NCBI RefSeq assembly: GCF_964213995.1 | Contig: NC_135806.1 | Span: 108,252,001-108,316,000 of the forward strand | DNA from: Mustelus asterias | Taxonomy: Eukaryota | Direction: 5' to 3' | DNA: 64,000 nucleotides | Shown here: one piece after another, positions 9,172 to 64,000 of the stretch | Layout of the letters: every line of letters starts with the position of its first letter | How positions within the stretch are numbered: position 1 is the first letter of the stretch | Program-made: the position numbers and the translations under genes | Notes under the pieces: generated by a model | Database searches by the model: none | Seen by the model: the letters and a program-made list of their open reading frames with translations, nothing else | Told to the model about the DNA's origin: nothing

Positions 9172-9460
9172 GTGGGGTAAACACAGTAAGAAGTTTAACA
9201 ACACCAGGTTAAAGTCCAACAGGTTTATTTGGTAGCAAAAGCCACACAAGCTTTCGGAGCTCTTAGCCCCTTCCTCAGGTGAGTGGGAATTCTGTTCACA
9301 AACAGAGCTTATAAAGACACAGACTCAATTTACATGAATAATGGTTGGAATGCGAATACTTACAACTAATCAAGTCTTTAAGAAACAAAACAATGGGAGT
9401 GGAGAGAGCATCAAGACAGGCTAAAAAGATGTGTATTGTCTCCAGACAAGACAGCCAGTG
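9172..9460 (-). mobile_element. Penelope-like element 3' pLTR fragment (family A)
   Basis: Near-identical to the arms of the 49500-50191 element, which carries a GIY-YIG C-terminus. Confidence 0.8.
9242..9286 (-). ncRNA. Minimal type I hammerhead ribozyme motif in Penelope pLTR
   Basis: Minus strand CCACTCAC-CTGAGGA-A-GGGGCT AAG AGCTCC-GAAA-GCT-T-GTGTGG: CUGANGA and GAAA cores, stem II, palindromic AGCU stem III, stem I CAC/GUG. Confidence 0.72.
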
Positions 9461-22361: not shown

Positions 22362-22674
22362 CATAGAATCCCTACAGTGCAGAAGGAGGGCATTCGGCCC
22401 ATCGAGTCTACACTGACCACAATCCCACCCAGGCCCTATTCCCCACACCCCACATATTCACCCTGCTAATCCCCATGATACTAGAGTCAATTTAGCATGG
22501 CCAATCAACCTAACCCACACATCTTTGAACTGTGGGAGGAAACTGGAGCACCCGGAGGAAACCCATGCAGACATGGGGAGAACATGCAGACTCCACACAG
22601 ACAGTGACCCGAGGCTGGAGTTGAACCCGGGTCCCTGGCGCTATGAGGCAGCAGTGCTAACCACTGTGCCACCC
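22362..22674 (-). mobile_element. SINE subfamily A
   Basis: Reverse complement of the SINE consensus. Confidence 0.88.
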
Positions 22675-22751: not shown

Positions 22752-23942
22752 TCAGGGCAGTTGATGTCATATACATGGATTTTAGTAAGGCGTTTGATAA
22801 GGTCCCCCATGGTCGGCTTATGATGAAAGTGAGGAGGTGTGGGATAGAGGGAAAGTTGGCCGATTGGATAGGTAACTGGCTGTCTGACCGAAGACAGAGG
22901 GTGGTGGTCGATGGAAAATTTTCGGATTGGAGGCAGGTTGCTAGCGGTGTGCCGCAGGGATCAGTGCTTGGTCCTCTGCTCTTTGTGATTTTTATTAATG
23001 ACTTAGAGGAGGGGGCTGAAGGGTGGATCAGTAAATTTACTGATGACACCAAGATTGGTGGAGTAGTGGATGAGGTGGAGGGCTGTTGTAGGCTGCAAAG
23101 AGACATAGATAGGATGCAAAGCTGGGCTGAAAAATGGCAAATGGAGTTTAACCCTGATAAATGTGAGGTGATTCGTTTTGGTTGGACAAATTTAAATGTG
23201 GATTACAGGGTCAAAGGTAGGGTTCTGAAGACTGTGGAGGAACAGAGAGATCTTGGGGTCCATATCCACAGATCTCTAAAGGTTGCCAGTCAAGTGGATA
23301 GAGCTGTGAAGAAGGCCTATAGTGTGTTAGCTTTTATTAACAGGGGGTTGGAGTTTAAGAGCCGTGGGGTTATGCTGCAACTGTACAGGACCTTGGTGAG
23401 ACCACATTTGGAATATTGTGTGCAGTTCTGGTCACCTCACTATAAGAAGGATGTGGAAGCGCTGGAAAGAGTGCAGAGGAGATTTACCAGGATGCTGCCT
23501 GGTTTGGAGGGTAGGTCATATGAGGAAAGGTTGAGGGAGCTAGGGCTGTTCTCTCTGGAGCGGAGGAGGCTGAGGGGAGACTTAATAGAGGTGTATAAAA
23601 TGATGAAGGGGATAGATAGAGTGAACGTTCAAAGACTATTTCCTCGGGTGGATGGAGCTATTACAAGGGGGCATAACTATAGGGTTCGTGGTGGGAGATA
23701 CAGGACGGATATCAGAGGTAGGTTCTTTACGCAGAGAGTGGTTGGGGTGTGGAATGGACTGCCTGCAGTGATAGTGGAGTCAGACACTTTAGAAACATTT
23801 AAGCGGTTATTGGATAGGCACATGGAGCACACCAGGATGATAGGGAGTGGGATAGCTTGATCTTGGTTTCAGATAAAGCTCGGCACAACATCGTGGGCCG
23901 AAGGGCCTGTTCTGTGCTGTACTGTTCTATGTTCTATGTTCT
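22752..23942 (+). mobile_element. Young 5'-truncated CR1 (361-aa RT C-half intact)
   Basis: MDFSKAFDKVPH...GVPQGSVLGP...KFTDDTK; tail (GTTCTAT)n; TSD ATAACC at 22746-22751 / 23943-23948. Confidence 0.93.
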
Positions 23943-32876: not shown

Positions 32877-33198
32877 GGGCAACACAGTGGCATAGTGGTT
32901 AGCACTGCTTCCTCACAGCGCCAGGGACCCGGGTTCAATTCTGGCCTCGGGTCACTGTCGGTGTGGAGTTTGTATGTTTTCCCCGTGTCTGTGTGGGTTT
33001 CCTCCGGATGCTGCGGTTTCCTCCCACAATCCAAAGATGTGCGGGTTAGTTTGATTGGCCATGCTAAATTAACCCTCGTGTCAGGGGGATTAACAGGGTA
33101 AATCTAAGGGGTGACGGGAATAGGGCCTGGGTGAGATTGTGGTCGGTGCAGACGCGATGGGCCTCCTTCTGCACTGTAGGGATTCTACAATTCTATGA
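32877..33198 (+). mobile_element. SINE subfamily A
   Basis: Head, central domain and CR1-type tail. Confidence 0.88.
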
Positions 33199-33755: not shown

Positions 33756-33959
<204 letters not shown>

Positions 33960-34170: not shown

Positions 34171-34885
34171 AGTGGCACGGTGGCACAACGGTTAGCACTG
34201 CTACCTCACAGCGCCAGGGACCCGGGTTCAATTCCAGCCTCGGGTCACTGTCTGTGTGGAGTTTGCACATTCTCCCCCTGTCTGCGTGGATTTCCTCCGG
34301 GTGTTCCGGTTTCCTCCCACAGTCCAAAGATGTGCAGATTAGGTTGATTGGCCATGCTTAATTGCCCCTAGTGTCATGGGGATTAGCACAAACATTTGGT
34401 GCATCACGGTTTATTTCTGAATTACCACCTCTCAGCACTCCACACAGTGACCTTATGCTGTTGTTTTTTTTATCTTGTTCTACCACGATGTTGTGCCGAG
34501 CTTTATCTGAAACCAAGATCAAGCTATCACACTCCCTATCATCCTGGTGTGCTCCATGTGCCTATCCAATAACCGCTTAAATGTGCCTAAAGTGTCTGAC
34601 TCCACTATCACTGCAGGCAGTCCATTCCACACCCCAACCACTCTCTGCGTAAAGAACCTACCTCTGATATCCTTCCTATATCTCCCACCACGAACCCTAT
34701 AGTTATGCCCCTAATATCTTCATGCTTTCATCTATTTAGAAACCTTGGTCCCTGTATTGGAGGAAAGATGCAGTGGCATTGGAGGCAATATATGTGGGGT
34801 TACGGGAATAGAGCCTGGGTGGGATTGTGGTCGCTGCAGACTCGATGGGCTGAATAGCCTCCTTCTGCACTGTAGGGATTGTATC
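34171..34885 (+). mobile_element. SINE subfamily A split by a 402-bp templated insertion (34386-34787)
   Basis: 5' half ends GGGATTAGCA, 3' half resumes ATATATGTGGGGTTACGGG. Confidence 0.88.
34386..34787 (+). repeat. Bipartite local duplication: copy of 37184-37284 joined to copy of 38190-38490
   Basis: Both parts identical to their donors by eye (101 bp and 301 bp), joined at a shared CCAC. Confidence 0.95.
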
Positions 34886-35059
34886 AACCCATATTCCTTC
34901 TAACTTCTGTTTGCTGTGAGCTGCAGATTTGTTGCACCGTACAGTTGCTTAATGTGTGGCAGCACATGTCCACATCTTAACAGGAACATCGCTTGTGAAG
35001 GGCTTGTTCCCTGTGCAGGCTAGAGGGAACCTCAATATACACTATGTCATAAGTTACTA

Positions 35060-35913
35060 TATAAGACCATAAGACCATAAGACATAGGAGCGGAAGTAAG
35101 GCCATTCGGCCCATCGAGTCCACTCCACCATTCAATCATGGTTGATTTCAACTCCATTTACCCGCTCTCTCCCCATAGCCCTTAATTCCTCGAGAAATCA
35201 AGAATTTATCAATTTCTGTCTTGAAGACGCTCAACGTCTCGGCCTCCACAGCCCTCTGTGGCAATGAATTCCACAGACCCACCACTCTCTGGCTGAAGAA
35301 ATTTCTCCTCATCTCTGTTCTAAAGTGACTCCCTTTTATTCTAAGGCTGTGCCCCCGCGTCCTAGTCTCCCCTGTTAATGGAAACAACTTCCCTACGTCC
35401 ATCCTATCTAAGCCGTTCATTATCTTGTAAGTTTCTATCAGATCTCCCCTCAACCTCCTAAACTCCAATGAATATAATCCCACGATCCTCAGACGTTCAT
35501 CGTATGTCAGGCCTACCATTCCTGGGATCATCCGTGTGAATCTCCGCTGGACCCGCTCCAGTGCCAGTATGTCCTTCCTGAGGTGTGGGGCCCAAAATTG
35601 CTCACAGTACTCCAAATGGGGCCTAACCAGTGCTTTATAAAGCCTCAGAAGTACATCCCTGCTTTTGTATTCCAAGCCTCTTGAGATAAATGACAACATT
35701 ACATTTGCTTTCTTAATTACGGACTCAACCTGCAAGTTTACCTTTAGAGAATCCTGGACTAGGACTCCCAAGTCCCTTTGCACTTTAGCATTATGAATTT
35801 TGTCACCGTTTAGAAAATAGTCCATGCCTCTATTCTTTTTTCCAAAGTGTACGACCTCGCACTTGCCCACGTTGAATTTCATCAGCCACTTCTTGGACCA
35901 CTCTCCTAAACTG
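35060..35913 (-). mobile_element. Young CR1 3' portion
   Basis: 244-aa ORF MKFNVGKCEVVHFG...; tail (TCTTATGG)n. Confidence 0.92.
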
Positions 35914-36863
35914 TTCTGTTCTGTTGCATAATATAAAGCTCTGAGATATAGACAAAGCCATTGAAATCACTTCTGTTTGATTACTTACTTATGTTTTTGT
36001 CCTGGAAGTTCCCACTGTAAATTTCCCATCTGATGTGACACTTCTGAATTTGAGAAAGCAGGTACACCCCCCACTTCCAGAGCACTGCTGCTACTCCCAA
36101 AAGTGGCCATTTCCTGAGATTCACAGCATTTCATCACTAGATGTGTGTCAGATTGGGAGCTAAGATGAGCAGGGCTGAACTCTATCTCTACCTATTCTGC
36201 CGCTATACCATTGTCCTGCTCATTTGTACTTTGTATAGGAGACTGTAACACGTGTGTGTATAAGAAACTGTAACACGTGTGTGAAGGATAGTCCTGTCCA
36301 CAGTACCTGGAATGCCAGAATGTGTTTATTATTCTCCAGAATTTTACTTAAACAGGACTTTCATATCACCTTGAACATAGTAATTTGTCTCCAGGAGTGT
36401 TGCCAAACAATATTTTAACCCAGCCACAAATTCCAATGGACATACAATGGGAACTTGTCAGCCTGTAATTTTACTCTGCTTCCAGTAGGGGTGCTACTGC
36501 ACCACCATTGGCTGGTGGGTATAGTTACAGCAGGAAAAGTTTACATAGGCAGCATTCATTATCGGTGCAGATGTGGGCATTTATAGTGGAGTGTATAAAA
36601 ATAAAGGTAGAATGTGTGACTGTAAAATGGGACTTGAATTATATCTGTTTTCCCTATTATAATATAATATTGTGTTATCCCTGCCTTCCAGTCATGCTTT
36701 ACTTTGGTCTTGACCCTCTGTGCAGTACCACAGGTGACTGAGAAAACATGTAGGCCAATGCTTCCCAAACTTTTACTCACTTCACCCAATATGAGGTTTG
36801 AAAATTGCCAAGACCCAAGTGATCCCAGAGTGAGAGCCAGGTTAGGGTGTGTTGGGATAGTAT

Positions 36864-37087
36864 CCATAGAATCATAGAATCCCTGCAGTACAGATGAAAG
36901 CCATTCAGCCCATCGAGTCTGCACCGACTCTCTGACAGAGCATCTTGCCCAGGTCCCATTCCCATAACCCACATATTTACCCCGCAAATCTGCCTAATAC
37001 ATCTTGGCTCATTAAGAGGCAACTTAGCATGGCAAATCTACCGAACCAGCACATCTTTGGACTGTGAAAGGAAACAAGCACCCAGCA
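36864..37087 (-). mobile_element. SINE subfamily A, 5'-truncated
   Basis: Tail and 3' part of the central domain. Confidence 0.8.
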
Positions 37088-37287
37088 GCCATTTCTGCTT
37101 TGGGGCTCGCAGCCCCAGAACATCATCGTGTGACCCCATTTGCAACCCAGAGTTTGGGAAGCCCTGATATATGTGTGAATTTGGCACAAACATTTGGTGC
37201 ATCACGGTTTATTTCTGAATTACCACCTCTCAGCACTCCACACAGTGACCTTATGCTGTTGTTTTTTTTATCTTGTTCTACCACCAG

Positions 37288-37385
37288 GGCAGAGCCACAA
37301 GCACAAACCCCATCGCCAGTATCTTTGCCTGGACTCGAGGGCTAGAGCACAGAGCAAAACTCGATGGCAGTCAGCAACTCAAACA
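37288..37385 (+). CDS. IDH2: IDH2-like exon (human exon 9 equivalent, 98 bp)
   Basis: ccaccag|GGCAGA...AAACA|gtgagt; [32 protein letters not shown](Q). Confidence 0.96.
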
Positions 37386-37717
37386 GTGAGTCTTTTCTGA
37401 TTTTGAAAGCAATGTACTGAGAATGCCCAGAAGTTTATGGATTGACCATGACTACACAGAATATTATACTGACAAGACTCTGAGTGTTTCACGCAGTGAG
37501 CACTAATGGTTAAATCCTCAGTGTTCAACACTGAAGCAGAAAACTCCATTCAGCATTAAATTTCAAAAATGTGGATTTTATGCTTCTGGTAGTTCCAAGT
37601 GCTTGTTCCAGTTTTCTAAATGGATGAAAGTAGAACCTCTGGGGTCGGAACTTTATCATTTGGGGCTATGGTTATGGTATCTGGTCTTTCCAGGGACCCA
37701 TTCTGGAAATTGCATGT

Positions 37718-38020
37718 AAAGTTTATTTATTTATTAGTCACAAGTTTACATTAACACTGCAATGAAGTTGCTGTGAAAATCCCCCAGTCGCCACACTCCG
37801 GCGCCTGTTTGGGTACACTGAGGGAGAATTTAGAATGGCCAATGCACCTAACCAGCATGTCTTTTGGACTGTGGGAGGAAACTGGAGCACCTGGAGGAAA
37901 CCCACACAGACACAGGGAGAACGTGCAGTCTCTGCACAGACAGTGACCCAAGCTGGGAATCGAACCCATGTCCCTGGCGCTGTGAGGCAGCAGTGCTAAC
38001 CACTGCCACCGTGCCGTCCC
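37718..38020 (-). mobile_element. SINE subfamily B (same head/body, different 3' tail)
   Basis: Tail (minus) ...TTTTCACAGCAACTTCATTGCAGTGTTAATGTAAACTTGTGACTAATAAATAAATAAACTTT; ATGTA repeated at both flanks. Confidence 0.85.
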
Positions 38021-38144
38021 ATGTATATGGACATCATGTCACTCAGCTGTGATGTATCCCCAGCTTTGTCAAACCTCCTGCTGAGTTTCACAGCTGTATC
38101 GGATGCCCACTGCAAGTGGAGCTCCTTTCTCTTCAAATATCAAT

Positions 38145-38414
38145 ATAGAACATAGAACAGTACAGCACAGAACAGGCCCTTTGGCCCACGATGTTGTGCC
38201 GAGCTTTATCTGAAACCAAGATCAAGCTATCACACTCCCTATCATCCTGGTGTGCTCCATGTGCCTATCCAATAACCGCTTAAATGTGCCTAAAGTGTCT
38301 GACTCCACTATCACTGCAGGCAGTCCATTCCACACCCCAACCACTCTCTGCGTAAAGAACCTACCTCTGATATCCTTCCTATATCTCCCACCACGAACCC
38401 TATAGTTATGCCCC
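38145..38414 (-). mobile_element. CR1 3' end (same subfamily as 22752-23942)
   Basis: Reverse complement of 23670-23942. Confidence 0.9.
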
Positions 38415-38439
38415 TAATATCTTCATGCTTTCATCTATT

Positions 38440-38975
38440 TAGAAACCTTGGTCCCTGTATTGGAGGAAAGATGCAGTGGCATTGGAGGCAGTTCAGAGGA
38501 GGTTCACTAGATTGATTCCAGAGATGAGGGGTTTGTCGTATGAAGAGAGATTGAACAGTTTAAGCCCATACTCTCTGGAATTTAGAAGAATGAGGGTAGA
38601 TCAAATTGAGATATTCAAGATGATAAAAGATATGGATACAATAGATGTGGAGCGGATGCTTCCACTGGTGGGGCATTCTAGGACGAGAGGTCATAGTCTT
38701 AGGATAAGGGGTAGCAAATTTAAAACAGAGTTGAGGAGAAACTACTTCTCCCAAAGGGTTGTGAATCTGTGGAATTCACCACCCCAAAGTGCGGTGGATG
38801 CTGGGACAGTGAGTAAATTTAAGGAGGAGTTAGACAGATTTTTAATTGGTAATGGGTTGAAGGGTTATGGGGGGGAAGGCAGGAAAATGGGGATGAGGAG
38901 CATATTGGGCACGATCGAATGGCGGAGTGGACTTGATGGGCCAAATGGCCTAATTCTGCTCCTATATCTTATGAA
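38440..38975 (+). mobile_element. CR1 3' portion
   Basis: ALEAVQRRFTRLIP...FSQRVVNLWNS. Confidence 0.88.
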
Positions 38976-39378
38976 CTCGCTATCAGAATACAATTTTTCT
39001 TTGTCCAATCTCAATCCTTCCTCTTTACACCGTTAAGCGCCTCCCTTCACTATTTATGGGGATTTTGTATTTCATTAAGCTGCAAGAGGTCACTTCAAAC
39101 CCAGTAACAAGTTCTGTCCAAGATAGGAAGGCCTTTGCTGCAGCAGCAACCTAGAGGAAGTGTCCAGTGTGATTGCCTCACCATTCGCTCTTCCCTCTAT
39201 GTAAGAAAGCACGTGGTCTGCTTCAGTATATTTTCCCGAGTCTACTGCAGGGACTGGATTTCCTATCAGAGAGCTACAGCCACAAACCCGTTTGTTCCCA
39301 CTCTCTGACGTGGCACATTAAAGAATTCTGTTGTTTTTCCATTGTGATACAACTTTCTGTTATTGATATTTCTCCAAG

Positions 39379-40605: not shown

Positions 40606-41449
40606 GGGCCTTATTTTATCATTTTGATTCTAAGTGCTATGTGGACTTGAAACTGGGAGTGTTTCAGATCCGGCTTTTAGACCCATTCTCAGGCGTCCCT
40701 ATAAGCACTTTGCCTGAAAAAATAGCAGCGATTCTGAATTGCGCTGCACAAGCCTTTGGGCGGGGCTTGACACATCCGAAACACTGCAGCTCCGATCGGA
40801 GCCTTCAACTATGCATGCGCAGTAAAAAAATAGAAAAACACTCCCCTGCCACTTTGCTCCCAGGCCGGATAATGCCTCCCCCGGCCCCCACAGACATTGC
40901 CCCACCCCCACAACACAACTGATCCCCTTCTATCCCACCCCCCTGCTACCCGGACCGATCGCGGCCTTCTGCCTCCCTTTCCCCCCACCAATCGCACACA
41001 GAGTGGCAGCGGACCCCTCCTTTCCCCCCACCAATCGCACGCAGAGTGGCAGCGGACCCCCCATGCGCCCCTTGCCCCCACACCAGAGAGTCATGTGACC
41101 CTCTCCCCCCTCCCTCCCCCCTCACCAGAGAGCCATCTGACCTGCCTCCCTCCCCACCTCACCAGAAACCACCCCCCCCCCCCCCCCCCCCCCCCGATCT
41201 GAGTCAGAGAGCCGCCGGAAGCTCTGACCTTACCTCTTCAGAAGCTGGAGCGTCTGAATCAGACCTTTGCGGACCATATCTGTTTTGTGCCGAATCTGGA
41301 CAGGCGAATGCGGTGGTAAAGGGGGAAATGCTGGTAAGTTTGGGTGTGCAACCCGTTAAGTCAATTTAAATGCGCTATTCACCTCACGCCCGACTTTACC
41401 GAATTTTCACACCCGAAAACGGGCGCAACGTGATGGTAAAATCGGGTCA
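40606..41449. mobile_element. Harbinger-like non-autonomous element
   Basis: Imperfect TIRs GGGCCTTATTTTATCA / TGGTAAAATCGGGTCA, ATG on both sides (possible 3-bp TSD). Confidence 0.6.
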
Positions 41450-49156: not shown

Positions 49157-49499
49157 CTCCAAGATAAAAAGTTCCTTTCTGAAGTGCACTCACCATATTC
49201 CAGATGGGATCTGTCAAAGTTCTGTGCAACTGAAGTCTAACTTCTCCTTTTGTATTCCAAGTCCCCTCGAGGTAAAGGCTAATATTCCATGAGCATTTTT
49301 GATTTTTTTATACCTGTGCTCTGTTTTCTGTACTTGGACATGCAAATCTCCTTACGGCTGCGTGGTTCTTAGTCTCTTAATAAGAAAATAATTCGACTTG
49401 TCATTCTTGGATTCTAAATGGATGACCTCAGTCTTTCCTACATTAAGCTCCAGCTGGCACCGTTTTGCCCACTCGCTTAGTCTGACTGTCTTTGTAATT

Positions 49500-50191
49500 A
49501 CAGTAAGAAGTTTAACAACACCAGGTTAAAGTCCAACAGGTTTATTTGGTAGCAAAAGCCACACAAGCTTTCGGAGCCCCAAACCCCTTCTTCAGGTGAG
49601 TGGGAATTCTGTTCACAAACAGGGCATATAAAGACACAAACTCAATTTACATGAATAATGGTTGGAATGCGAATACTTACAGCTAATCAAGTCTTTAAGA
49701 TACAAACAATGTGAGTGGAGAGAGCATCAAGACAGGCTAAAGAGATGTGTATTGTCTCCAGACAGGACAGCCAGTGAAACTCTGCAGGTCCAGGCAGGCT
49801 GTGGGGATTACAAATAGTGTGACATGAACCCAATATCCCGGTTGAGGCCGTTCTCATGTGTGCGGAACTTGGCTATCAGTTCCTGCTCAGCGACTCTGCG
49901 CCATCGTGTGTCGTGAAGGCCTGTCTTGATGCTCTCTCCACTCACATTGTTTGTATCTTAAAGACTTGATTAGCTGTAAGTATTCGCATTCCAACCATTA
50001 TTCATGTAAATTGAGTCTGTGTCTTTATATGCCCTGTTTGTGAACAGAATTCCCACTCACCTGAAGAAGGGGCTTGAAGCTCCAAAAGCTTGTTGTGGCT
50101 TTTGCTACCTAATAAACCTGTTGGACTTTAACCTGGTGTTGTTAAACTTCTTACTGTGTTTACCCCAGTCCAACGCTGGCATCTACACATC
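49500..50191. mobile_element. Penelope-like element: 3' fragment plus inverted pLTR
   Basis: About 235-bp inverted arms (49500-49737 / 49919-50157); minus-strand peptide LHDTRWRRVAEQELIAKFRTHENGLNRDIGFMSHYL* (GIY-YIG C-terminus); one-sided tail of about 34 nt; 13-bp TSD TGTCTTTGTAATT. Confidence 0.88.
49559..49603 (-). ncRNA. Minimal hammerhead ribozyme motif in Penelope pLTR
   Basis: Minus CCACTCAC-CTGAAGA-AGGGGTTTGGGGCTCC-GAAA-GCT-T-GTGTGG; the plus-strand partner at 50053-50098 has GAAA mutated to AAAA. Confidence 0.7.
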
Positions 50192-51418: not shown

Positions 51419-54400
51419 GAGGGCTTTATTTTCATAGACCAATGGGAGGTTTTCAGGAGAGGATGGCACCTGTACAAGAGGGAGGGGTCACAACTAAGTT
51501 GGAAGGGTACAAATATCCTGGCTGGGAGCTTTGCTAATGCAGTTCGGGGGGGTTTAAACTAGTATGGCAGGGGGGTGGGGATCAAACTATTAGGTCTATA
51601 AGTGTGGTGGCTGGGGACGAGCTTGGGGCTGGGACAAGGCTGGCAAAGAAGAAGAGCACTCTGGGGGAGGACGACCTCACTGAGCCTGGGGGTCTGGAGT
51701 GCTTATACTTCAATGCAAGGAGCGTAGCAGGTAAAACAGACGAACTTGGGGCCTTAATGCGCACGAGGAATTTGGATGTGGTTGCGGTGACGGAGACTTG
51801 GTTGAAAGAGGGACAGGACTGGCAGCTGAATATTCCAGGGTACAAGTGTTTTAGGCGAGACAGAGGAGGGGCCAAAAGAGGTGGGGGAGTAGCGGTATTG
51901 GTTGGAGAGCATATTACAGCGGTGCAGAGGGAGGACAATTCGGAGGAGTCGTGTAGCGAGTCACTCTGGGTGGAGCTTAGAAACAGGAAAGGCGCAGTCA
52001 CTATGTTGGGGGTGTACTACAGGCCCCCCAACAGCCCAAGGGAAGTGGAAGAATGGATATGTCAGGAGATACTGGATAGGTGCAGGAAATATAGGGTTGT
52101 TGTAGTGGGAGACTTCAATTTCCCTGGTATAGACTGGAAATCGCTGAGGGCAGGGACTCTGGATGGTGAGGCATTTGTAAAATGTGTACAGGAGGGTTCG
52201 TTGGAACAATATGTGGACAGCCCAACTAGAGAGGGGGCTATACTGGACCTGGTGCTGGGGAATGAGCCCGGTCAGGTCTTCAAAGTTTTGGTCGGGGAAC
52301 ATGTGGCAAATAGTGACCACAATTCTGTTAGCTTTAGGATAGTGATGGAAAAGGATGAGTGGTGTCCCAAGGGTAAGGTGTTGGATTGGGGGAAGGCTAA
52401 CTTTATTGGGATCAGGCAGAAATTGGCAGCTCTTGATTGGGAGAGGCTGTTTGAGGGTAAATCCACATCTGGTATGTGGCAGTCTTTTAAGGAACGGTTG
52501 TTAGGGCTACAGGACAAGCATGTGCCTGTAAAAAAGAAGGATAGGAAGGGTAGGATTAGAGAACCGTGGATAACCAGGGAAATTGAGGGACTGGTCAAAA
52601 GGAAAAGAGAGGCGTATGTTAGGTCCAAGCAGCTAAAAACGGAGGGAGCTCTGGAGGAGTATAATGAAAGTAGGAAAATACTCAAACGGGGAATTAGAAG
52701 AGCAAAAAGGGGTCACGAAATGTTCTTGGCAGACAGGATTAAGGAGAATCCCAAGGCATTTTATTCATACGTTAGGAACAAAAGGGTTGTAAGGGAAAAA
52801 ATCGGACCTCTCAGGGACAAAAGTGGGGACTTATGCTTGGAGCCCAAAGAGGTAGGGGAGATCCTAAATGAATACTTTGCGTCGGTATTCACTAAGGAGA
52901 GGGATGTGTTGACTGGGAGTGTCTCGGAGGGGAGTGTTGAACCGTTGGAGAAAATCTCCATTACAAAGGAGGAAGTGTTAGGTTTGTTAGAGAATATAAA
53001 GACTGACAAATCCCCAGGGCCTGATGGAATCTATCCAAGGCTGCTCAGGGAGACGAGAGGTGAAATAGTTGGGCCTCTGACGCAAATCTTTGTCTCGTCA
53101 CTGGACACAGGTGAGGTCCCAGAGGATTGGAGGATAGCCAATGTGGTCCCGTTATTTAAGAAGGGTAGGAAGGATAACCCGGGTAATTATAGGCCGGTGA
53201 GCTTGACGTCCGTGGTGGGGAAGTTGTTGGAGAAGATTCTTAAAGATAGGATGTATGCGCATTTAGAAAGGAATAAACTCATTAACGATAGTCAACATGG
53301 TTTTGTGAGAGGGAGGTCATGCCTCACGAACCTGGTGGTGTTTTTTGAAGAAGTGACCAAAATGGTTGACGAAGGAAGGGCCGTGGATGTTGTCTATATG
53401 GACTTTAGTAAAGCATTTGACAAAGTCCCTCATGGTAGGCTAGTGAAAAAGGTTGGATCCCATGGGATAAAGGGGGAGCTGGCTAGATGGGTGGAGAACT
53501 GGCTTGGTCATAGAAGACAGAGGGTGGTAGTGGAAGGGTCTTTTTCCGGCTGGAGGCCTGTGACTAGTGGTGTACCGCAGGGCTCTGTATTGGGACCTCT
53601 GCTGTTTGTGATTTATATAAATGATCTGGAAGAAGGAGTAACTGGGGTGATCAGTAAGTTTGCGGACGACACAAAACTGGCAGGACTTGCAGATAGTGAG
53701 GAACATTGTCAAAGGCTACAGAAGGATATAGATAGGCTGGAAATTTGGGCAAGGAAATGGCAGATGGAGTTCAATCCTGATAAATGCGAAGTGATGCATT
53801 TTGGTGGGAATAATGTAGGGAGGAGCTACACGATAAATGGAAGAACCATAAAGGGTGTAGAGACGCAGAGGGACCTGGGTGTGCAAGTCCACAGATCTTT
53901 GAAGGTGACGTCACAGGTGGAGAAGGTGGTGAAGAAGGCATATGGCATGCTTGCCTTTATAGGACGGGGCATAGAGTATAAGAGTTGGGGTCTGATGTTG
54001 CAGATGTATAGAACGTTGGTTCGGCCGCATTTGGAATACTGCGTCCAGTTCTGGTCGCCACACTACCAGAAGGACGTGGAGGCTTTGGAGAGAGTACAGA
54101 GGAGGTTTACCAGGATGTTGCCTGGTATGGAGGGGCTTGGTTATGAGGAGAGATTGGGGAAACTGGGGTTGTTCTCCTTGGAACGACGGAGGATGAGGGG
54201 AGACTTAATAGAGGTGTATAAAATTATGAAAGGCATAGATAGGGTGAACGGTGGGAAGCTTTTCCCCGGGTCGGTGGTGACGTTCACGAGGGGTCATAGG
54301 TTCAAGGTGAAGGGGGGGAGGTTTAACACAGATATCAGAAGGACATATTTCACACAGAGGGTCGTGGGGGCCTGGAATGTGTTGCCGGGCAAGGTGGTGG

Positions 54401-55032
54401 AGGCGGACACACTGGGAACGTTTAAGACTTATCTAGACAGCTATATGAACGGAGTGGGAATGGAGGGATACAAAAGAGTGGTCTAGTTTGGACCAGGGAG
54501 CGGCGCGGGCTAATTGTTCCTTGTTTCTCGTTTCAAGGCTTCATTCTACGATCATCTTGCTGGTGCCAGTACAGAGTGAGACTGCGGATAGTTGGGAACC
54601 TGTCTCGGGGGCAGGGAATTCATATGGTGTTCGTGGAAGTGGAAATGACTAGGGTTGGGAAGCATTTTCCGATCGGGGCCATTGTGATCTCCTGGACTCG
54701 TTTCGATCGCCTCAGGGGGTCGGAGAGGAATTTCCCAGATTTTTTTTTCCCCATATTGGCCCTGGGGTTTTTCACTCTGGGTTTTCGCCTCTCCCTGGAG
54801 ATCACATGGTCTGGAATGGGGGGGTGGGGGTAAGTTAATAGGTTGTAATGAACAAAGCATCGTAGCTGTGAGGGACAGCTCGGTGGATAGGATATTGGTA
54901 TGTAGATAGGCTGGAAAATTGGGCGGGGATCCTGGATTCAGGATTCAATCCTGGACCGGGGAGCGGCGCGGGCTTGGAGGGCCGAAGGGCCTGTTCCTGT
55001 GCTGTATTGTTCTTTGTTCTTTGTTGTTCTTT
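51419..55032 (+). mobile_element. Young CR1 LINE, 5'-truncated within ORF1, ORF2 intact
   Basis: ORF1 tail (SGNH esterase-like ...LYKREGSQLSWKGTNILAGSFANAVRGGLN*), ORF2, long 3' UTR, (TGTTCTT)n tail, 6-bp TSD. Confidence 0.95.
51604..54486 (+). CDS. CR1 ORF2: APE endonuclease + reverse transcriptase (frame open from 51538; true start undetermined)
   Basis: CLYFNARS, VTETW, YYRPP, GDFNFP, LDLVL, SDH (APE); KSPGPDG, NYRPVSL, QHGF, DFSKAFD, GVPQGSVLGP, FADD (RT); no stops over 960 codons. Confidence 0.95.
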   Translation: MVAGDELGAGTRLAKKKSTLGEDDLTEPGGLECLYFNARSVAGKTDELGALMRTRNLDVVAVTETWLKEGQDWQLNIPGYKCFRRDRGGAKRGGGVAVLVGEHITAVQREDNSEESCSESLWVELRNRKGAVTMLGVYYRPPNSPREVEEWICQEILDRCRKYRVVVVGDFNFPGIDWKSLRAGTLDGEAFVKCVQEGSLEQYVDSPTREGAILDLVLGNEPGQVFKVLVGEHVANSDHNSVSFRIVMEKDEWCPKGKVLDWGKANFIGIRQKLAALDWERLFEGKSTSGMWQSFKERLLGLQDKHVPVKKKDRKGRIREPWITREIEGLVKRKREAYVRSKQLKTEGALEEYNESRKILKRGIRRAKRGHEMFLADRIKENPKAFYSYVRNKRVVREKIGPLRDKSGDLCLEPKEVGEILNEYFASVFTKERDVLTGSVSEGSVEPLEKISITKEEVLGLLENIKTDKSPGPDGIYPRLLRETRGEIVGPLTQIFVSSLDTGEVPEDWRIANVVPLFKKGRKDNPGNYRPVSLTSVVGKLLEKILKDRMYAHLERNKLINDSQHGFVRGRSCLTNLVVFFEEVTKMVDEGRAVDVVYMDFSKAFDKVPHGRLVKKVGSHGIKGELARWVENWLGHRRQRVVVEGSFSGWRPVTSGVPQGSVLGPLLFVIYINDLEEGVTGVISKFADDTKLAGLADSEEHCQRLQKDIDRLEIWARKWQMEFNPDKCEVMHFGGNNVGRSYTINGRTIKGVETQRDLGVQVHRSLKVTSQVEKVVKKAYGMLAFIGRGIEYKSWGLMLQMYRTLVRPHLEYCVQFWSPHYQKDVEALERVQRRFTRMLPGMEGLGYEERLGKLGLFSLERRRMRGDLIEVYKIMKGIDRVNGGKLFPGSVVTFTRGHRFKVKGGRFNTDIRRTYFTQRVVGAWNVLPGKVVEADTLGTFKTYLDSYMNGVGMEGYKRVV

Positions 55033-58440: not shown

Positions 58441-58958
58441 TTAAAAAGTCCTTGCAGAAAGTTTTGTTTGTGCTGTAGGGAAGAGTTTAAACTAGCCTGG
58501 CGGAGGTTGGAATCCTGAAAATACATTCAGAAAGGAGAGAAGAGTTGGAATGGAAGGCAGAAAATTAGTAAATGTTTTTGGAAGGCAGAGGGAACAGGTT
58601 AGAAAATAAACAAGTCAGTTTGGCAGTGCTAAATAGTGTCCTTCATTACAAGAAATCTACAGAATAAGGCGAATAAACAGAGAGCACAGATTGCCACATG
58701 AGTAAAAAATACCTAGAACAGAGACACAGCGAGACAGAAAATTTGATGGACTATTTAAAGGTCTGCTGACCTCGCGGGGGGGAGGGATTTCCAGTCTCAG
58801 GGTGGGCATGACTGGAAAATCCCACTCATAGTTGAAAGAAGAGAAGGAATGGCAGCTCAACATTCCTGGTTATTGATTTTCAGGTGACATAGGGAGGGAG
58901 TTAGGTTGCAATATCGATTGAAAAAGCAATTATAGCTGTGAAGAAGGCTAGTATGGTA

Positions 58959-59051
58959 GAAGGATCATTAAATGAAGCATTATGGGTTGAAGGATCATCA
59001 AATGAAGGATTATGGGTTGAAGGATCATTAAATGAAGCATTATGAGTTGAA
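58959..59051 (+). repeat. 30-bp tandem repeat x3
   Basis: GAAGGATCATTAAATGAAGCATTATGGGTT repeated three times inside the old CR1. Confidence 0.9.
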
Positions 59052-59286: not shown

Positions 59287-59423
59287 TGATGTGGAGATGC
59301 CGGCGTTGGACTGGGGTAAACACAGTAAGAAGTTTAACAACACCAGGTTAAAGTCCAACAGGTTTATTTGCTACCAAATAAACCTGTTGGACTTTAACCT
59401 GGTGTTGTTAAACTTCTTACTGT
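59287..59423. mobile_element. Short Penelope-derived palindrome with one-sided tail
   Basis: Perfect arms of about 48 bp; TGTAGTAAACCC duplicated at 59275-59286 / 59421-59432. Confidence 0.8.
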
Positions 59424-62400
59424 AGTAAACCCAACAGGAGAGGGAACGATTTTGGACTGTTTTCAGGATCACAAATGGATCAGTGGAATGGAGTGGCAGG
59501 TTGAACGGTTAAAGAAAAAGGGTGAGACTGACAAATACATAAATAATGTCAAGCATTTTAAAGGGGAGGATTCAGCAAAGAAGGGGAACTTAGGACAGAG
59601 ATAGAGGTCTAGAAAACCTATAGGTGTATATAAAGTATAGGGGGGAAAATTAGAAAGGAAAGCAAAGAGAGGAGATGAAAATACATTGGCAAGGAAAATC
59701 CCATAGGGAATTTTTTTTAAATATGGAAAGAAGAGGATAACTACAGTAAGAGTCAGGACTATTGGGAACATAAGGGTGTGTGGAGATGGGTTATAAATGG
59801 TATGGTTCTAAATGAATACAGTGTATCTGTTCTCACAAAAGAGAGGGATGATATAAACAGGGGATAGGAGTTTGATGAGATTAACATTGTGAGGGAGGAA
59901 CTGTGAAAGGGTTTAACATCTTTGAAAGTGAATGCTCCCAAGCCAGGACAAAATTCATCCTCGCCTGTTAAGGGAAGAAAAAGAAGAAATAATAAGGCTC
60001 TGGTATTCATTTCCAATCTTCCATCATGTTCCAAGTCAGACGAAGGGTCATCCAGACTCGAGACATTCGCTCTATTCTCTCTCCACAGATGCTGTTAGAT
60101 GTGCTGGGTTTCACCAGCATTTTCTGTTTTTGTTTCAGATTCCAGCATCCGCAGTATTTTGCCTTTATGATGTTCCAATCTTCTCTGGCTATAGGTGTGC
60201 TACCAGAGGTCTGGAGGACAGCTAATGTTGTACCATTGTTTAAAAAGGTCAAAATGAGTAGACTGAGAATTACAGGTCAGTCAGCCCAATCTTGATGATG
60301 GGAAAATTATTGAAAATTTATAGAGATGAGATGAGATAAATCTTCATTTAAAAGGACACAGATTTATCAAAGTCAGCCAGCACGGTTTAAGGGAAGGTCA
60401 TTGCTGCCTGAATGATTGAGTATTTTGAGGACAGAACAAGTAGGTTCAATGAGGATAATGCATTTGATGTCGTCTATATAAATTTTAGCAAGGCTTTTGA
60501 TGAGGTTGCAAATGACATGAAAGTAAAATTCCATGGCATGTAAGGCAAAATGGCAAATTGGATCCAAATCTGGCTCAGATGCAGGAAGAAAAAGGTCATT
60601 GTGAATGGGTGTTTCAGTGACTGTTTTCAGGACTTTGGACTTGAATGTAGGTGGTATGATTAAGCAGTTTGTAGACCATAGAAACACTAACTGTGTGGCT
60701 GATAATGAAGAAGGAAACTTTAAATTGGAAGAAGATATTAATGGACTAGTCAGGTGGGGCGAAGAGTGGCAAATGAGCTCGATTTGGAGGCGTGTGAGGG
60801 AATGCATTAGGGGAAGACTAACAAGGCAAGTGAATGCACAATAAGTTGTAGGCTACTGAGAAACATAGAGGAATGGAAGGATCTTGGTGTCAATGCCCCT
60901 GAGTTCTGAAGGTAGTTGGACAGATAGATAAGGTGGCCAAGAAGGCCTTTATTAGCTGAGGCATAGAGTATAAGAACTGGGAGATTCTCCAACTGTAAAA
61001 CACTAGTTAGGTCACAGCTGGAGTACTACGTGCAGTTCTGGTCACCACACGATAGGAAAGATGTGATTGTACTCGGAAGGGTACGAAGGAGATTTATGAA
61101 GATGTTACCTAGATTGGAGAATTTCAGTTATGAGAAAAGATTGGATAGGCTAGGATTGTTCTCTCTGGGACAGAGAAGACTGACAGGAGACCTAATTGAA
61201 GCGCATAAAATGATGAGAGCTATAGATAGCATGGATTAGAATGCCCCATTCCCCTTGATTGAGGGAATCGAAGGGTGTAGATTTAGGATAGGAAGTAAGA
61301 GTTGAGAGGGGATTGGGGGGAAATCTTTTCACCCAGGGGAAGTTGCTGCCTGAAAGAGCTGGAGAGGCAGAAACCATCAGAAAAGTACATGGGTATGCAC
61401 TTGAAGTTGTCTAATTTATATGACTACAGACCAAGTGCTGGGTGGCTACCTGTCAGCCAGTGCAAACATGATGGGCCAAATGCCTCCTTTTGTGCTAGAG
61501 ATTTCTATGTTTCCTATGACAACCCAAACTCAATCCTGTCCTCACCGAATAACCACTGGATCGTGACCAAGAACAGAAGTCACGGCAGACTTTTCTTTTC
61601 CTTGAATTCAAGACTGCCAGGGCCGAAAGTAAAATTCTTACTCTCATCCCAGCTGAGATCAGCCAATTCAGCACAGGAATGACACATGGTCTCTTTCTGC
61701 TCAATGTGGTTCACTTACTCCCTGACTAAAATCACCAAGCCATCAAAAGAATTGCCATATTTTGTGTGTACTACTAAAAACATGTTCTAAAGTGAATATA
61801 TATGCATGTTCTCCGCTAGTGAAGCAACGTTAATTGTCTGTAGTTTATTAGAGAGCCTGATAAAAATGGACAATGCTGGAATAATAGGCATCATTTTTCT
61901 TTGTTGGAGAATAATGATGATTACTTATTCTTGAATAATATGTAACAGAATGAAGCACAGATAATTTTCACACACAGGAACTTGTGAAGAGGATGTGAGT
62001 ACCTCACATTTTTCTGGTTTCAGTCTCATGTCTCTATCCACACAAAGTGGGAGAAACAGAAAGAAGTTGTGGGAATTCAGACAACATTTTTGACTAGATT
62101 TACAGTAGTATTGCAAACAATCTGAGAGCGTTCACACGAGAAACAGCTAACCATATGCTTAAGGAATAGAAATTAATCATTTCAAAGTGGCGTGTGGTTT
62201 GATGCTTCCAAGTTTGCACAGTAAATATTCCCAAATGACAACATTTTTGAAGAAAAAATAACCATTTTATTTATTGGAATCATTATTTACTAAATGAATT
62301 GCGGTCCATACTTTAAAGACTCAATGGCAATTATCAAAAACGATTTGGCAAATATTTCTGTATTCGGAGATTGAGGATATTTATGAGTGCTATGGAACAA

Positions 62401-63130
62401 CTTTGACTCAATGCCATTGAATAGTGATTGAATCACAGCGATTGATGAGGTGTATTTTATATCATGTGGTTCCAATAACTGATAAGAACTTTTAGCACGA
62501 TTAGTGAAGGCAGTTCCCATGTAATGTTTCCTCCACTTGTGGTAATCACTGTTAGAGCCCTAATTGTAATTTCTTGCAGAGGGGACTGCAGAATGCTGTA
62601 TTTAGAACTATGGAAATGTTGCGATACAGAAAGAGGCCATTCAGTTCATCATGTCTTCACCGGCCGAAAGAAAAGAAACTGGCTGCCCATTTTAATCCCA
62701 TTTTGCAGCACCTGGTTTGTAGCATTGCAGGTTACAGCACTTAAGATGCAGATCCAGGTCCCAAAAGAGAAAATGCTGGAAAATCTCAGCAGATCTGGCA
62801 GCATCTGTAAGGAGAGAAAAGAGTTGACGTTTCGAGTCCAGATGACCCTTTGTTAAAGTTAAAAGGCCTTTTAGCTTTGACAAAGCAGCAGCAAGCCCAG
62901 GACAGGATTGAAAAGTTAACTAAAAAGTTTTTTTTGGTGAAGTTTCTTTGTGGCCAGGTGAAGCGGAAGTGAGGCTTCCATCCCCACTGTTGCTACACCC
63001 CAACTGCTGGGGATCATGTTGTGAGTTTCCAGAGACAGCCTCTTGCCCCATTCACCTGCTCCCACCCACTGACTATACTCCTCGAACCGGCTTCAGATGG
63101 AAATCCGGGTTAACTTTTCATATAATTATC

Positions 63131-63778
63131 CCTGCAGTGCAGAAGGAGAAGGAAGCCATTCGGCCCATCGAGTCTCCACCGGCTCTCTGACAGAGCATCT
63201 TACTCAGGCTAACCCTCCCCTCGCCCTATCCCCATAGACCCACATACTTAAAGTTTAAAGTTTATTTATTAGTCTCAAGTAAGGCTTACATTAACACTAC
63301 AATGAAGTTACTGTGGAATTTCTCTAGTCGTCACACTCTCAGATTGTTTGCAATACTACTGTAAATCTAGTCAAAAATGTTGTCTGAATTCCCACAACTT
63401 CTCTCTGTTTCTCCCACTTTGTTCGGGTCAATGCACCTAACCAGCACATCTTTCAGACTGTGGGAGGAAACCGGAACACCTGGAGGAAACCCACGCAGGC
63501 ACGGGGAGAACATGCAAACTCCCCACAGACAGTGAGTGACCCAAGCCAGGAATCGAACCCGGGTCCCTGGCGCAGTGAAGCAGCAGTGCCAACCACTGTG
63601 CTACTGTGCCACCCCTACTGTGCTACTGTGCCGCCCCTATGGTGCTACCGTGCCACTCCCGTGCTACCTGTGCTGCCATGTCACCCTTGTGCTGCCGTGC
63701 CGCCCCTCATTAATCCCCCTAACCTTTACATCTTGGGACACTAAGGGGCAATTTAGCATGGCCTATCCATCTACCCTG
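63131..63778 (-). mobile_element. Nested SINEs: subfamily B (63250-63705) inside a subfamily A remnant; amplified head repeats at 63590-63705
   Basis: A-type tail 63131-63249 resumes at 63706; the B copy has tandem CTGTGC(C/T)AC repeats at its 5' end. Confidence 0.8.
63336..63422 (-). repeat. 87-bp inverted copy of unique sequence 62042-62128 inserted in a SINE
   Basis: 86/87 identical to the reverse complement of 62042-62128. Confidence 0.93.
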
Positions 63779-64000
63779 GACAACTTTTGCAAATCAAACC
63801 TCACCAACTCCATATCTATAGCACCTGCCTGACAATTACACTTTCCTCTCATTTCAATTCAGAAATTAGAAGCTTTCAAGAAGATATTTACAGGTGTTAC
63901 TTCATGTATGTTTCAAATACATCCAAACATGATTGTTAAAAGTTTCTTTATTTATAATATCTGGAAGAACAGTCATGAAATTTGCAGTTTTCCTTTCCCT

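Follow-up and report, generated by a model that had tools for sequence, protein, structure and literature searches.

The window analysed here, 64 kb of Mustelus asterias DNA without any N, carries the 3' part of the shark gene for mitochondrial NADP-isocitrate dehydrogenase (IDH2). For one exon the top matches among solved structures were mitochondrial IDH chains, and another exon was, over 48 residues, 98% identical to the IDH2 of zebra shark and cloudy catshark and 90% identical to that of a devil ray (identities from 5 hits among 9 candidates). With the zebra shark (Stegostoma) protein as query, tblastn placed 8 exons in the window, covering residues 117-443, each of them present once. The exons at 33772..33884 and 37288..37385 we take to be exons 8 and 9, counting back from the last coding exon on the human total of 11. 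About 39% of the window matched other parts of the window, chiefly as copies of a ~300-nt SINE and as LINE fragments, a LINE sequence that we assume to be CR1. An Rfam scan of the whole window gave 0 matches at gathering score. The features central to this study are collected in Table 1.

Table 1. Positions in the window of the split SINE, its inserted tracts, their donors, a second patch and the neighbouring IDH2 exons.
Feature	Positions	Strand	Evidence
IDH2 coding exon 5' of the host intron	33772..33884	+	Pfam Iso_dh, E 1e-6; tblastn to Stegostoma IDH2 residues 312-352; AG/GT edges
Host SINE left arm	34172..34388	+	90% identity without gaps to copy 22673-22464; 12-copy alignment; last 3 nt, GCA, also the start of donor 1
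Inserted tract 1, intron 3' end (pyrimidine tract without the final CAG)	34386..34486	+	101-nt exact match to 37184-37284
Inserted tract 2, sequence of the next intron (antisense LINE end, spacer, sense LINE fragment), 3' end GCA	34483..34787	+	305-nt exact match to 38186-38490
Candidate third tract or right-end microhomology, 9 nt	34788..34796	+	Identical to 37167-37175; last 7 nt also normal SINE
Host SINE right arm	34790..34884	+	88% identity without gaps to 22457-22363
Nine-nt site identical to the insert's right flank, ending 8 nt 5' of donor 1	37167..37175	+	
Donor 1, intron sequence running into the exon's acceptor	37184..37284	+	Sole other match in the window is the insert; 0 spanning hits once removed
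Uncopied 905 nt	37285..38189	+	Contains the acceptor CAG, exon 37288-37385 and antisense SINE 37717-38024
IDH2 coding exon, single copy, open frame	37288..37385	+	tblastn residues 350-385, one hit; AG/GT edges
Donor 2	38186..38490	+	LINE end natively extends upstream (38142), LINE reading frame downstream (to 39036)
Donor of the second patch, single-copy in the window, 1.2 kb off	62042..62131	+	Rejoined donor flanks span none
Second, older patch inside another SINE, inverted	63333..63422	-	88/90 identical to 62042-62131; rejoined flanks span 2 kin SINEs

Other repeats of the window deserve mention. An unbroken LINE frame of 982 residues with endonuclease and reverse transcriptase domains lies at 51538-54486 and is possibly a young element. 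The sequences at 49494-50191, 9173-9460 and 59287-59424 belong to one family that has the look of a non-autonomous DNA transposon: its inverted arms are long (245 nt at 96% identity in 49494-50163), and 59322-59423 is nearly palindromic. Short tandem duplications, 25, 43 and 30 nt in period and with 91-97% matches, were seen at 36232-36283, 40976-41060 and 58955-59051, respectively.

An intronic SINE split by two exact copies of nearby sequence

One SINE in the intron between these exons of IDH2 is interrupted by 402 nt, which consist of two exact tracts copied from the 3' side and fused at a 4-nt overlap. The 101-nt and 305-nt matches that relate these tracts to their donors are the two longest exact repeats of the 64-kb window. 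With the insert excised and its flanks rejoined, 8 alignments crossed the join to other SINE copies, and the same rejoining at donor 1 and at donor 2 gave 0 spanning hits each; because 8 kin copies match the rejoined flanks, the direction of copying is secure. Compared with its two nearest kin among the 12 copies that were aligned from the window, the host SINE is a net 4 nt shorter at the insert site. The alignment of its arms to the nearest kin is gapless over 210 and 95 nt, which locates the 4-nt loss exactly at the insert. There was no poly(A) or poly(T) tail at either end of the insert.

Within the window, tract 1 is single-copy apart from the insert, and tract 2 consists mostly of a LINE end, of which a paralogue lies at 23668-23896. 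Tract 2 runs from the antisense LINE end through a spacer of ~33 nt into the sense LINE fragment. At all five substitutions that separate donor 2 from the paralogue, the insert carries the donor 2 base, and it continues through the spacer into the second LINE fragment; tract 2 was therefore copied from this locus. A separate LINE insertion as its source is ruled out by the same five diagnostic bases and by a match that spans two boundaries. The LINE label of 38443-39033 is based on DNA matches of 65-75% to other fragments, and a Pfam search of this fragment found no domain. Part of the spacer (38428-38448) agrees at 19 of 21 positions with an inverted sequence ~800 nt upstream (37610-37630), which may be a short templated filler of older date or a chance match.

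The structure thus agrees in most respects with the initial annotation, which had described a SINE split by 402 nt made of two exact copies (confirmed here by maximal matches), a few lost SINE bases (the net 4 nt relative to the two nearest kin), a missing 905 nt that include the exon (the uncopied 37285-38189), and a second segment that crosses a repeat boundary and was copied from the locus rather than transposed (as the diagnostic bases indicate). Its source for the second segment, 38190-38490, is copied exactly, but the match extends back to 38186. The donors are local, as it had proposed, and the 3-4 kb that it gave can be made more exact: start to start, donor 1 lies 2798 nt and donor 2 lies 3703 nt from its copy. 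Of its claim that neither tail nor target site duplication is present, the first part stands and the second stands only in part, for the insert begins and ends with GCA. Together, these data support a local templated insertion, apparently made by microhomology-primed template switching or break repair and not by transposition.

Pairing between inverted SINEs was considered as a guide to the donor and rejected: the start of donor 1 is 82-99 nt away from one in antisense, yet the copy is direct. Of the positions within 5 kb, 10% are equally near to an antisense SINE or inside one (4.3% counting outside only).

Junctions and a candidate third tract

The entry junction has a 3-nt overlap (GCA) and the junction between tract 1 and tract 2 a 4-nt overlap (CCAC), the two microhomologies that had been noted in the initial annotation. 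In 200,000 random joins, chance overlaps of at least 3 nt occurred in 5.6% and of at least 4 nt in 1.8%. The insert starts and finishes with GCA, and donor 2 ends with GCAG, which is also the sequence of the nearest kin SINE at the break.

The 9 nt that follow the insert (34788-34796) are identical to 37167-37175, a site that ends 8 nt before donor 1, and the join of 38490 to 37167 has a 0-nt overlap. This 9-mer was found exactly twice in the window when both strands were searched, at these two places. With the 9-mer taken as copied, the order at the recipient is 37184 onward, 38190 onward and 37167-37175, which would be a circular permutation of the donor with a permuted piece of 9 nt. For 61,461 random window positions, a match of 9 nt or more near the four donor ends was found in 0.3%, 0.7%, 1.2% and 2.5% of cases at radii of 25, 50, 100 and 250 nt, and for 2,902 SINE positions in 0.03%, 1.1%, 1.5% and 10.5% at the same radii, in a test that was devised after the match had been noticed. 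Only one base sets the 9-mer apart from ordinary SINE sequence: in the alignment, host and donor have a T that is an A in each of the 7 SINE copies comparable here.

These observations suggest that a third templated tract is probably present at the exit of the insert, so that the event previously called two-step probably included a third, short copy. They also suggest that both break ends probably engaged one donor site, producing the circularly permuted order, because the 9-mer adjoins donor 1 upstream and is found nowhere else in the window. The case for the 9-mer as a templated piece is good but not closed, and the 9-mer and the GCA echo cannot both be causal in one simple path. On the left flank, a search for a templated piece found nothing, the longest backward match being 3-4 nt.

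In the two nearest kin (22441-22474 and 33084-33118; host 34379-34823), the position equivalent to the break lies inside a relaxed G-quadruplex motif, with loops up to 12 nt. Such relaxed motifs cover 2.2% of the window. A motif with loops up to 7 nt was not found at the break position, and no G-quadruplex motif was found at the second patch (63333-63422). G4 motifs are described as enriched at structural-variant breakpoints of cartilaginous fishes in a preprint (10.64898/2026.06.26.733778). A G-quadruplex is thus a possible cause of the SINE break, which we offer as a lead only.

Consequences for IDH2

Tract 1 stops 3 nt before exon 37288-37385, and this exon is intact. The copy had been said to skip the exon, but we found no sign of splicing: the stretch that was passed over has no GT-AG in any of 5 registers on either strand, and a splice-derived junction was rejected on this ground. 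A jump across the 905 nt guided by structure was likewise rejected, as the end-to-end graph distances in four folds were 304, 194, 251 and 97 against null medians of 200, 149, 175 and 113. By chance, one of the four donor ends would lie as close as ~3 nt to an exon edge in 2.3% of cases. Selection might have removed copies in which the AG was included.

The first AG after the copied pyrimidine tract is at 34499-34500, in GAG context. The five best GT sites up to 35070 agree with 6 of 9 consensus positions, compared with 8 and 7 for the two real exons, where scoring was a crude consensus count. On paper, four cryptic exons are possible; one (57 nt, to 34557) is in frame without a stop, and the other three shift the frame. 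The pyrimidine tract was copied without an AG of its own, GAG is the context of the first AG beyond it, and strong donor sites are missing downstream; judging from these sequence features, the patch is probably neutral or silent for IDH2 splicing.

A second patch and the density of such events

Another SINE in the window is interrupted in a similar manner by an older, inverted patch (Table 1). Its junctions have a 3-nt overlap at entry and a 3-6 nt overlap at exit, and ~7 SINE bases were lost. That a second SINE patch is built alike speaks against an assembly artefact and for the reality of such events in this genome. Around it, pieces of two SINE types occur together at 63128-63787, consistent with nesting, along with a 22-nt tandem repeat (63595-63656).

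Six pairs of sequences are present only twice in the window. Three of these are at least 97% identical, and all three lie less than 3 kb apart: the tract 1 pair, 62042-62131/63333-63422 and 30476-30621/31189-31336. The other three are a near-tandem pair of 37 nt and two pairs that lie far apart and are 67-78% identical. The pair 30476-30621/31189-31336 is inverted, with 144 of 148 positions identical and 568 nt between its members. Neither member gave spanning hits (0 each), and no target duplication was apparent by eye; the pair could represent one more local patch, the third, or else mark both ends of one 860-nt transposon.

Published densities of such patches in vertebrates other than sharks are 0.08-0.65 per Mb of repeat. 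At the top of this range, 0.016 patches are expected in the 25,120 self-matching bases of the window, or 0.04 with all of the window taken as repeat, and one unselected SINE patch was observed; in this comparison 25,120 is too low for the repeat content, the published counts are given as minimums, and the sample is one window.

Age of the insert

The insert differs from its donors at 0 of 402 nt, which bounds its divergence at 0.74% (95% upper bound). A mutation rate of 7e-10 per bp per generation has been reported for the epaulette shark (PMC10587355). At that rate, which may not be the host's, 0.74% corresponds to up to ~5.3 million generations, and the earlier description of the event as very recent is not upheld. 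The youngest repeat pairs in the window are 95.5-96.4% identical, and the chance of 0 differences in the insert at 3.6% divergence is 4e-7. By these counts, the insert is shown to be younger than the youngest repeat pairs of the window.

Discussion

The insert fits the chimeric repair-mediated duplication as Pace, Sen, Batzer and Feschotte defined it in 2009 (PMC2671141). These authors described 824 human repeats interrupted by copies from within 5 kb; the empty site was inferred from the repeat family, as paralogous SINE copies stood in for it here, and detection was by a genome-wide search for interrupted repeats, the same search that the initial annotation had proposed as a check. Their repair-mediated duplications had inserts of 50-619 nt, microhomology of 2-9 nt, deletions of 1-15 nt, filler and no poly(A). 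Chimeras of two donors made up 20 of 1,136 and were fused at a short overlap, with the second donor at most 3.5 kb from the first in 5 of them. A proximal duplication in this scheme interrupts a transposable element by at least 50 bp, with halves that rejoin within 30 bp of the consensus, and its donor is less than 5 kb and more than 50 bp away; here 402 nt interrupt a SINE whose rejoined arms span 8 kin and are a net 4 nt short, and both donors (2798 and 3703 nt) are within that range. Microhomology, small deletion or filler at the junctions is represented by 3 nt, 4 nt, an exit of 7 nt or GCA, and the net 4-nt loss, and the absence of a poly(A) or poly(T) tail also corresponds. There are differences. 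The ten species of their Table 3 include no sharks, whereas the host here is a shark. The filler appears to be templated beside donor 1 and in permuted order, and the word 'circular' does not occur in the main text of that paper. Finally, tract 2 is mostly LINE, which their single-copy filter excluded.

Several other systems resemble the insert in part. Osia et al. 2021 (PMC8421209) counted 33 and 26 complex germline events in two people, with up to five templates, and the MMBIR-type insertions they describe share with ours several template switches at microhomology and a return to the original site; however, their search covered templates within ~100 bp, and here tracts of 101 and 301 nt come from donors ~3-4 kb off. 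Insertions made by polymerase theta are 3-30 bp long, with first-round tracts rarely above 10 bp (Carvajal-Garcia et al. 2020, PMC7165422). They are like ours in priming at short microhomology, in aborted rounds and in a last short round that leaves longer microhomology, and the final step of 2+7 nt could work like a polymerase-theta insertion. The short tracts and break-flanking source of that pathway are not what we see for the bulk of the insert, with 101 and 301 nt from ~3-4 kb. Thus, of the FoSTeS/MMBIR or polymerase-theta origin suggested in the initial annotation, template switching or break repair holds, but polymerase theta as the main copier does not, given tracts of this length against 3-30 bp.

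Class 2 TSIPs (Onozawa and Aplan 2016, PMC5110952) also lack a tail, show microdeletion and microhomology and leave the donor intact; their donors are distant and argued to be RNA-derived, whereas here they are local and multiple. Features of retrotransposition (class 1 TSIP, transduction, retrocopy), namely a target duplication of at least 5 bp, a poly(A) tail and a splice-type junction, were absent, with a target echo of at most 3 nt, no tail and no GT-AG. Circle-mediated duplications (PMC7188851, PMC7450558) have a circularly permuted order of the donor at the recipient, as the insert would have if the 9-mer was copied, but are described as segmental, above 1 kb and with long permuted blocks, compared with a 9-nt block here. 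Template switching is reported to occur at meiotic breaks (PMC7615360).

We consider it reasonably probable that the SINE was split when a DNA break, presumably in the germline, was repaired through ends that primed on the nearby sister or homologous duplex, giving a chimeric repair-mediated duplication by the following path. A break within the SINE would have been accompanied by the loss of ~6 nt. The left end would then pair by GCA at 37184 and be extended by ~100 nt, after which the new strand would slip forward 905 nt at CCAC and be extended by ~300 nt further. The right end would pair through 7-8 bases at 37169-37175, 8 nt from where the left end landed, and gain ~2 nt, and no microhomology would be involved in joining both extended ends. 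Alternatively, the same strand may have made a third hop as the last step, with an identical product. What we observe are the copies and the direction in which they were made, the overlaps at the junctions, a net loss of 4 nt, the missing tail and the intact exon; from these we infer the break, its germline origin, the enzymes and the order of steps, and sequence alone does not separate fork restart (MMBIR/FoSTeS) from two-ended break repair. Two observations count against this path: the GCA at the 3' end of the insert is left as a coincidence, and a donor end within ~3 nt of an exon edge, a 2.3% chance, is left unexplained.

The GCA echo favours instead a strand annealing between two donors, a mechanism of the same class. 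Here, a staggered break across GCA would let the left end copy donor 1 and the right end copy donor 2 backwards from GCA, the two strands would anneal at CCAC, and the 9-mer would be due to chance or have been there before. This accounts for GCA at both ends of the insert and for a donor 2 that ends with GCAG like the nearest kin SINE, and it is the model proposed for chimeric acceptors in PMC2671141, where microhomology with a short target duplication was seen in 5 of 39 proximal cases. It needs, however, a separate 4-nt deletion and a substitution exactly at the site, in a SINE otherwise gapless against its nearest kin over 305 nt, and it does not explain why the 9-mer is unique; we regard it as unlikely. 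Somewhat less likely again is the reintegration of a 419-nt circle (37167-37284 plus 38190-38490, closed to 37167), which would have been cut open at 37176-37183 and inserted at the SINE break with microhomology at either end. A circularly permuted recipient is the signature of circle-mediated duplication (PMC7188851, PMC7450558), but the permuted piece is only 9 nt, 2 of them beyond the SINE match, a random cut would seldom fall so near the circle's own closing junction (by our estimate ~1 in 6 to 1 in 12), nothing obliges a free circle to integrate as close as 3 kb to where it came from, and two junctions would be required before integration. A patch templated by RNA, in which the reverse transcriptase of a LINE would have filled the break from nascent IDH2 pre-mRNA and jumped the exon region, would suit two tracts that are both sense and in transcript order, the end of tract 1 at 3-7 nt before an acceptor (chance ~2.3%), the long LINE frame with endonuclease and reverse transcriptase domains in the window, and the RNA origin argued for class 2 templated insertions (PMC5110952). 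We think it highly improbable, since the skipped stretch has no GT-AG in 5 registers on either strand, its ends are not joined in the folds (the graph distance exceeds the null median in 3 of 4 and is near it in the fourth), no tail is present, and the second patch is inverted and lies ~19 kb past the last coding exon found.

Two further readings would do without a patch of this kind. The 0 differences in 402 nt could also reflect a chimera of assembly or library. Assemblers normally join sequences on overlaps far longer than 0-7 nt, and the junction overlaps here are only 0-7 nt; moreover, the path comes back within a few bases of its departure point, the window contains no N, and the second patch has the same anatomy and differs from its donor at 2 of 90 positions. 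An artefact therefore seems to us very improbable. In its layout the locus is also formally equal to a 4.1-kb tandem duplication (34389-38490) whose first copy was trimmed by two deletions, which would have occurred at the 3- and 4-nt microhomologies, and selection could favour the loss of the extra exon. Three events without a substitution in 402 nt, together with an unexplained 9-mer match, leave this the least credible account of all, with hardly any weight.

The class of repair-mediated duplications was already described in 2009, and the shark case is an added example. Among the papers listed by our literature search there was no report of such patches in sharks, which is weak evidence of absence, and the main text of a vertebrate structural-variant preprint has 0 occurrences of 'templated'. 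As a single allele, the insert is of minor importance, because its class is known and the gene is apparently unharmed. It is, however, an unusually clean record in which every junction can be read, since the insert landed in a repeat that has close kin and the copies have not decayed, and it could serve as a ready presence/absence marker if the empty allele survives.

The locus raises the question of whether slowly evolving shark genomes hold far more patches than those of mammals, birds and zebrafish, and whether junction 'filler' is often a third templated piece, with both break ends on one donor site. A bolder reading combines two claims: that local repair patches are densely archived in shark genomes, at tens of times the 0.08-0.65 per Mb of repeat, and that this patch records either two ends of one break that primed back to back within a single 20-nt donor bubble or a 419-nt circle reinserted beside its source. 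The dense archive is suggested by two patched SINEs and a third near-identical inverted pair in 64 kb; that both claims hold we consider doubtful and put forward as speculation. If such patches proved general, the lengths of the permuted pieces over thousands of them in sharks would directly test circle reintegration against two-ended copying.
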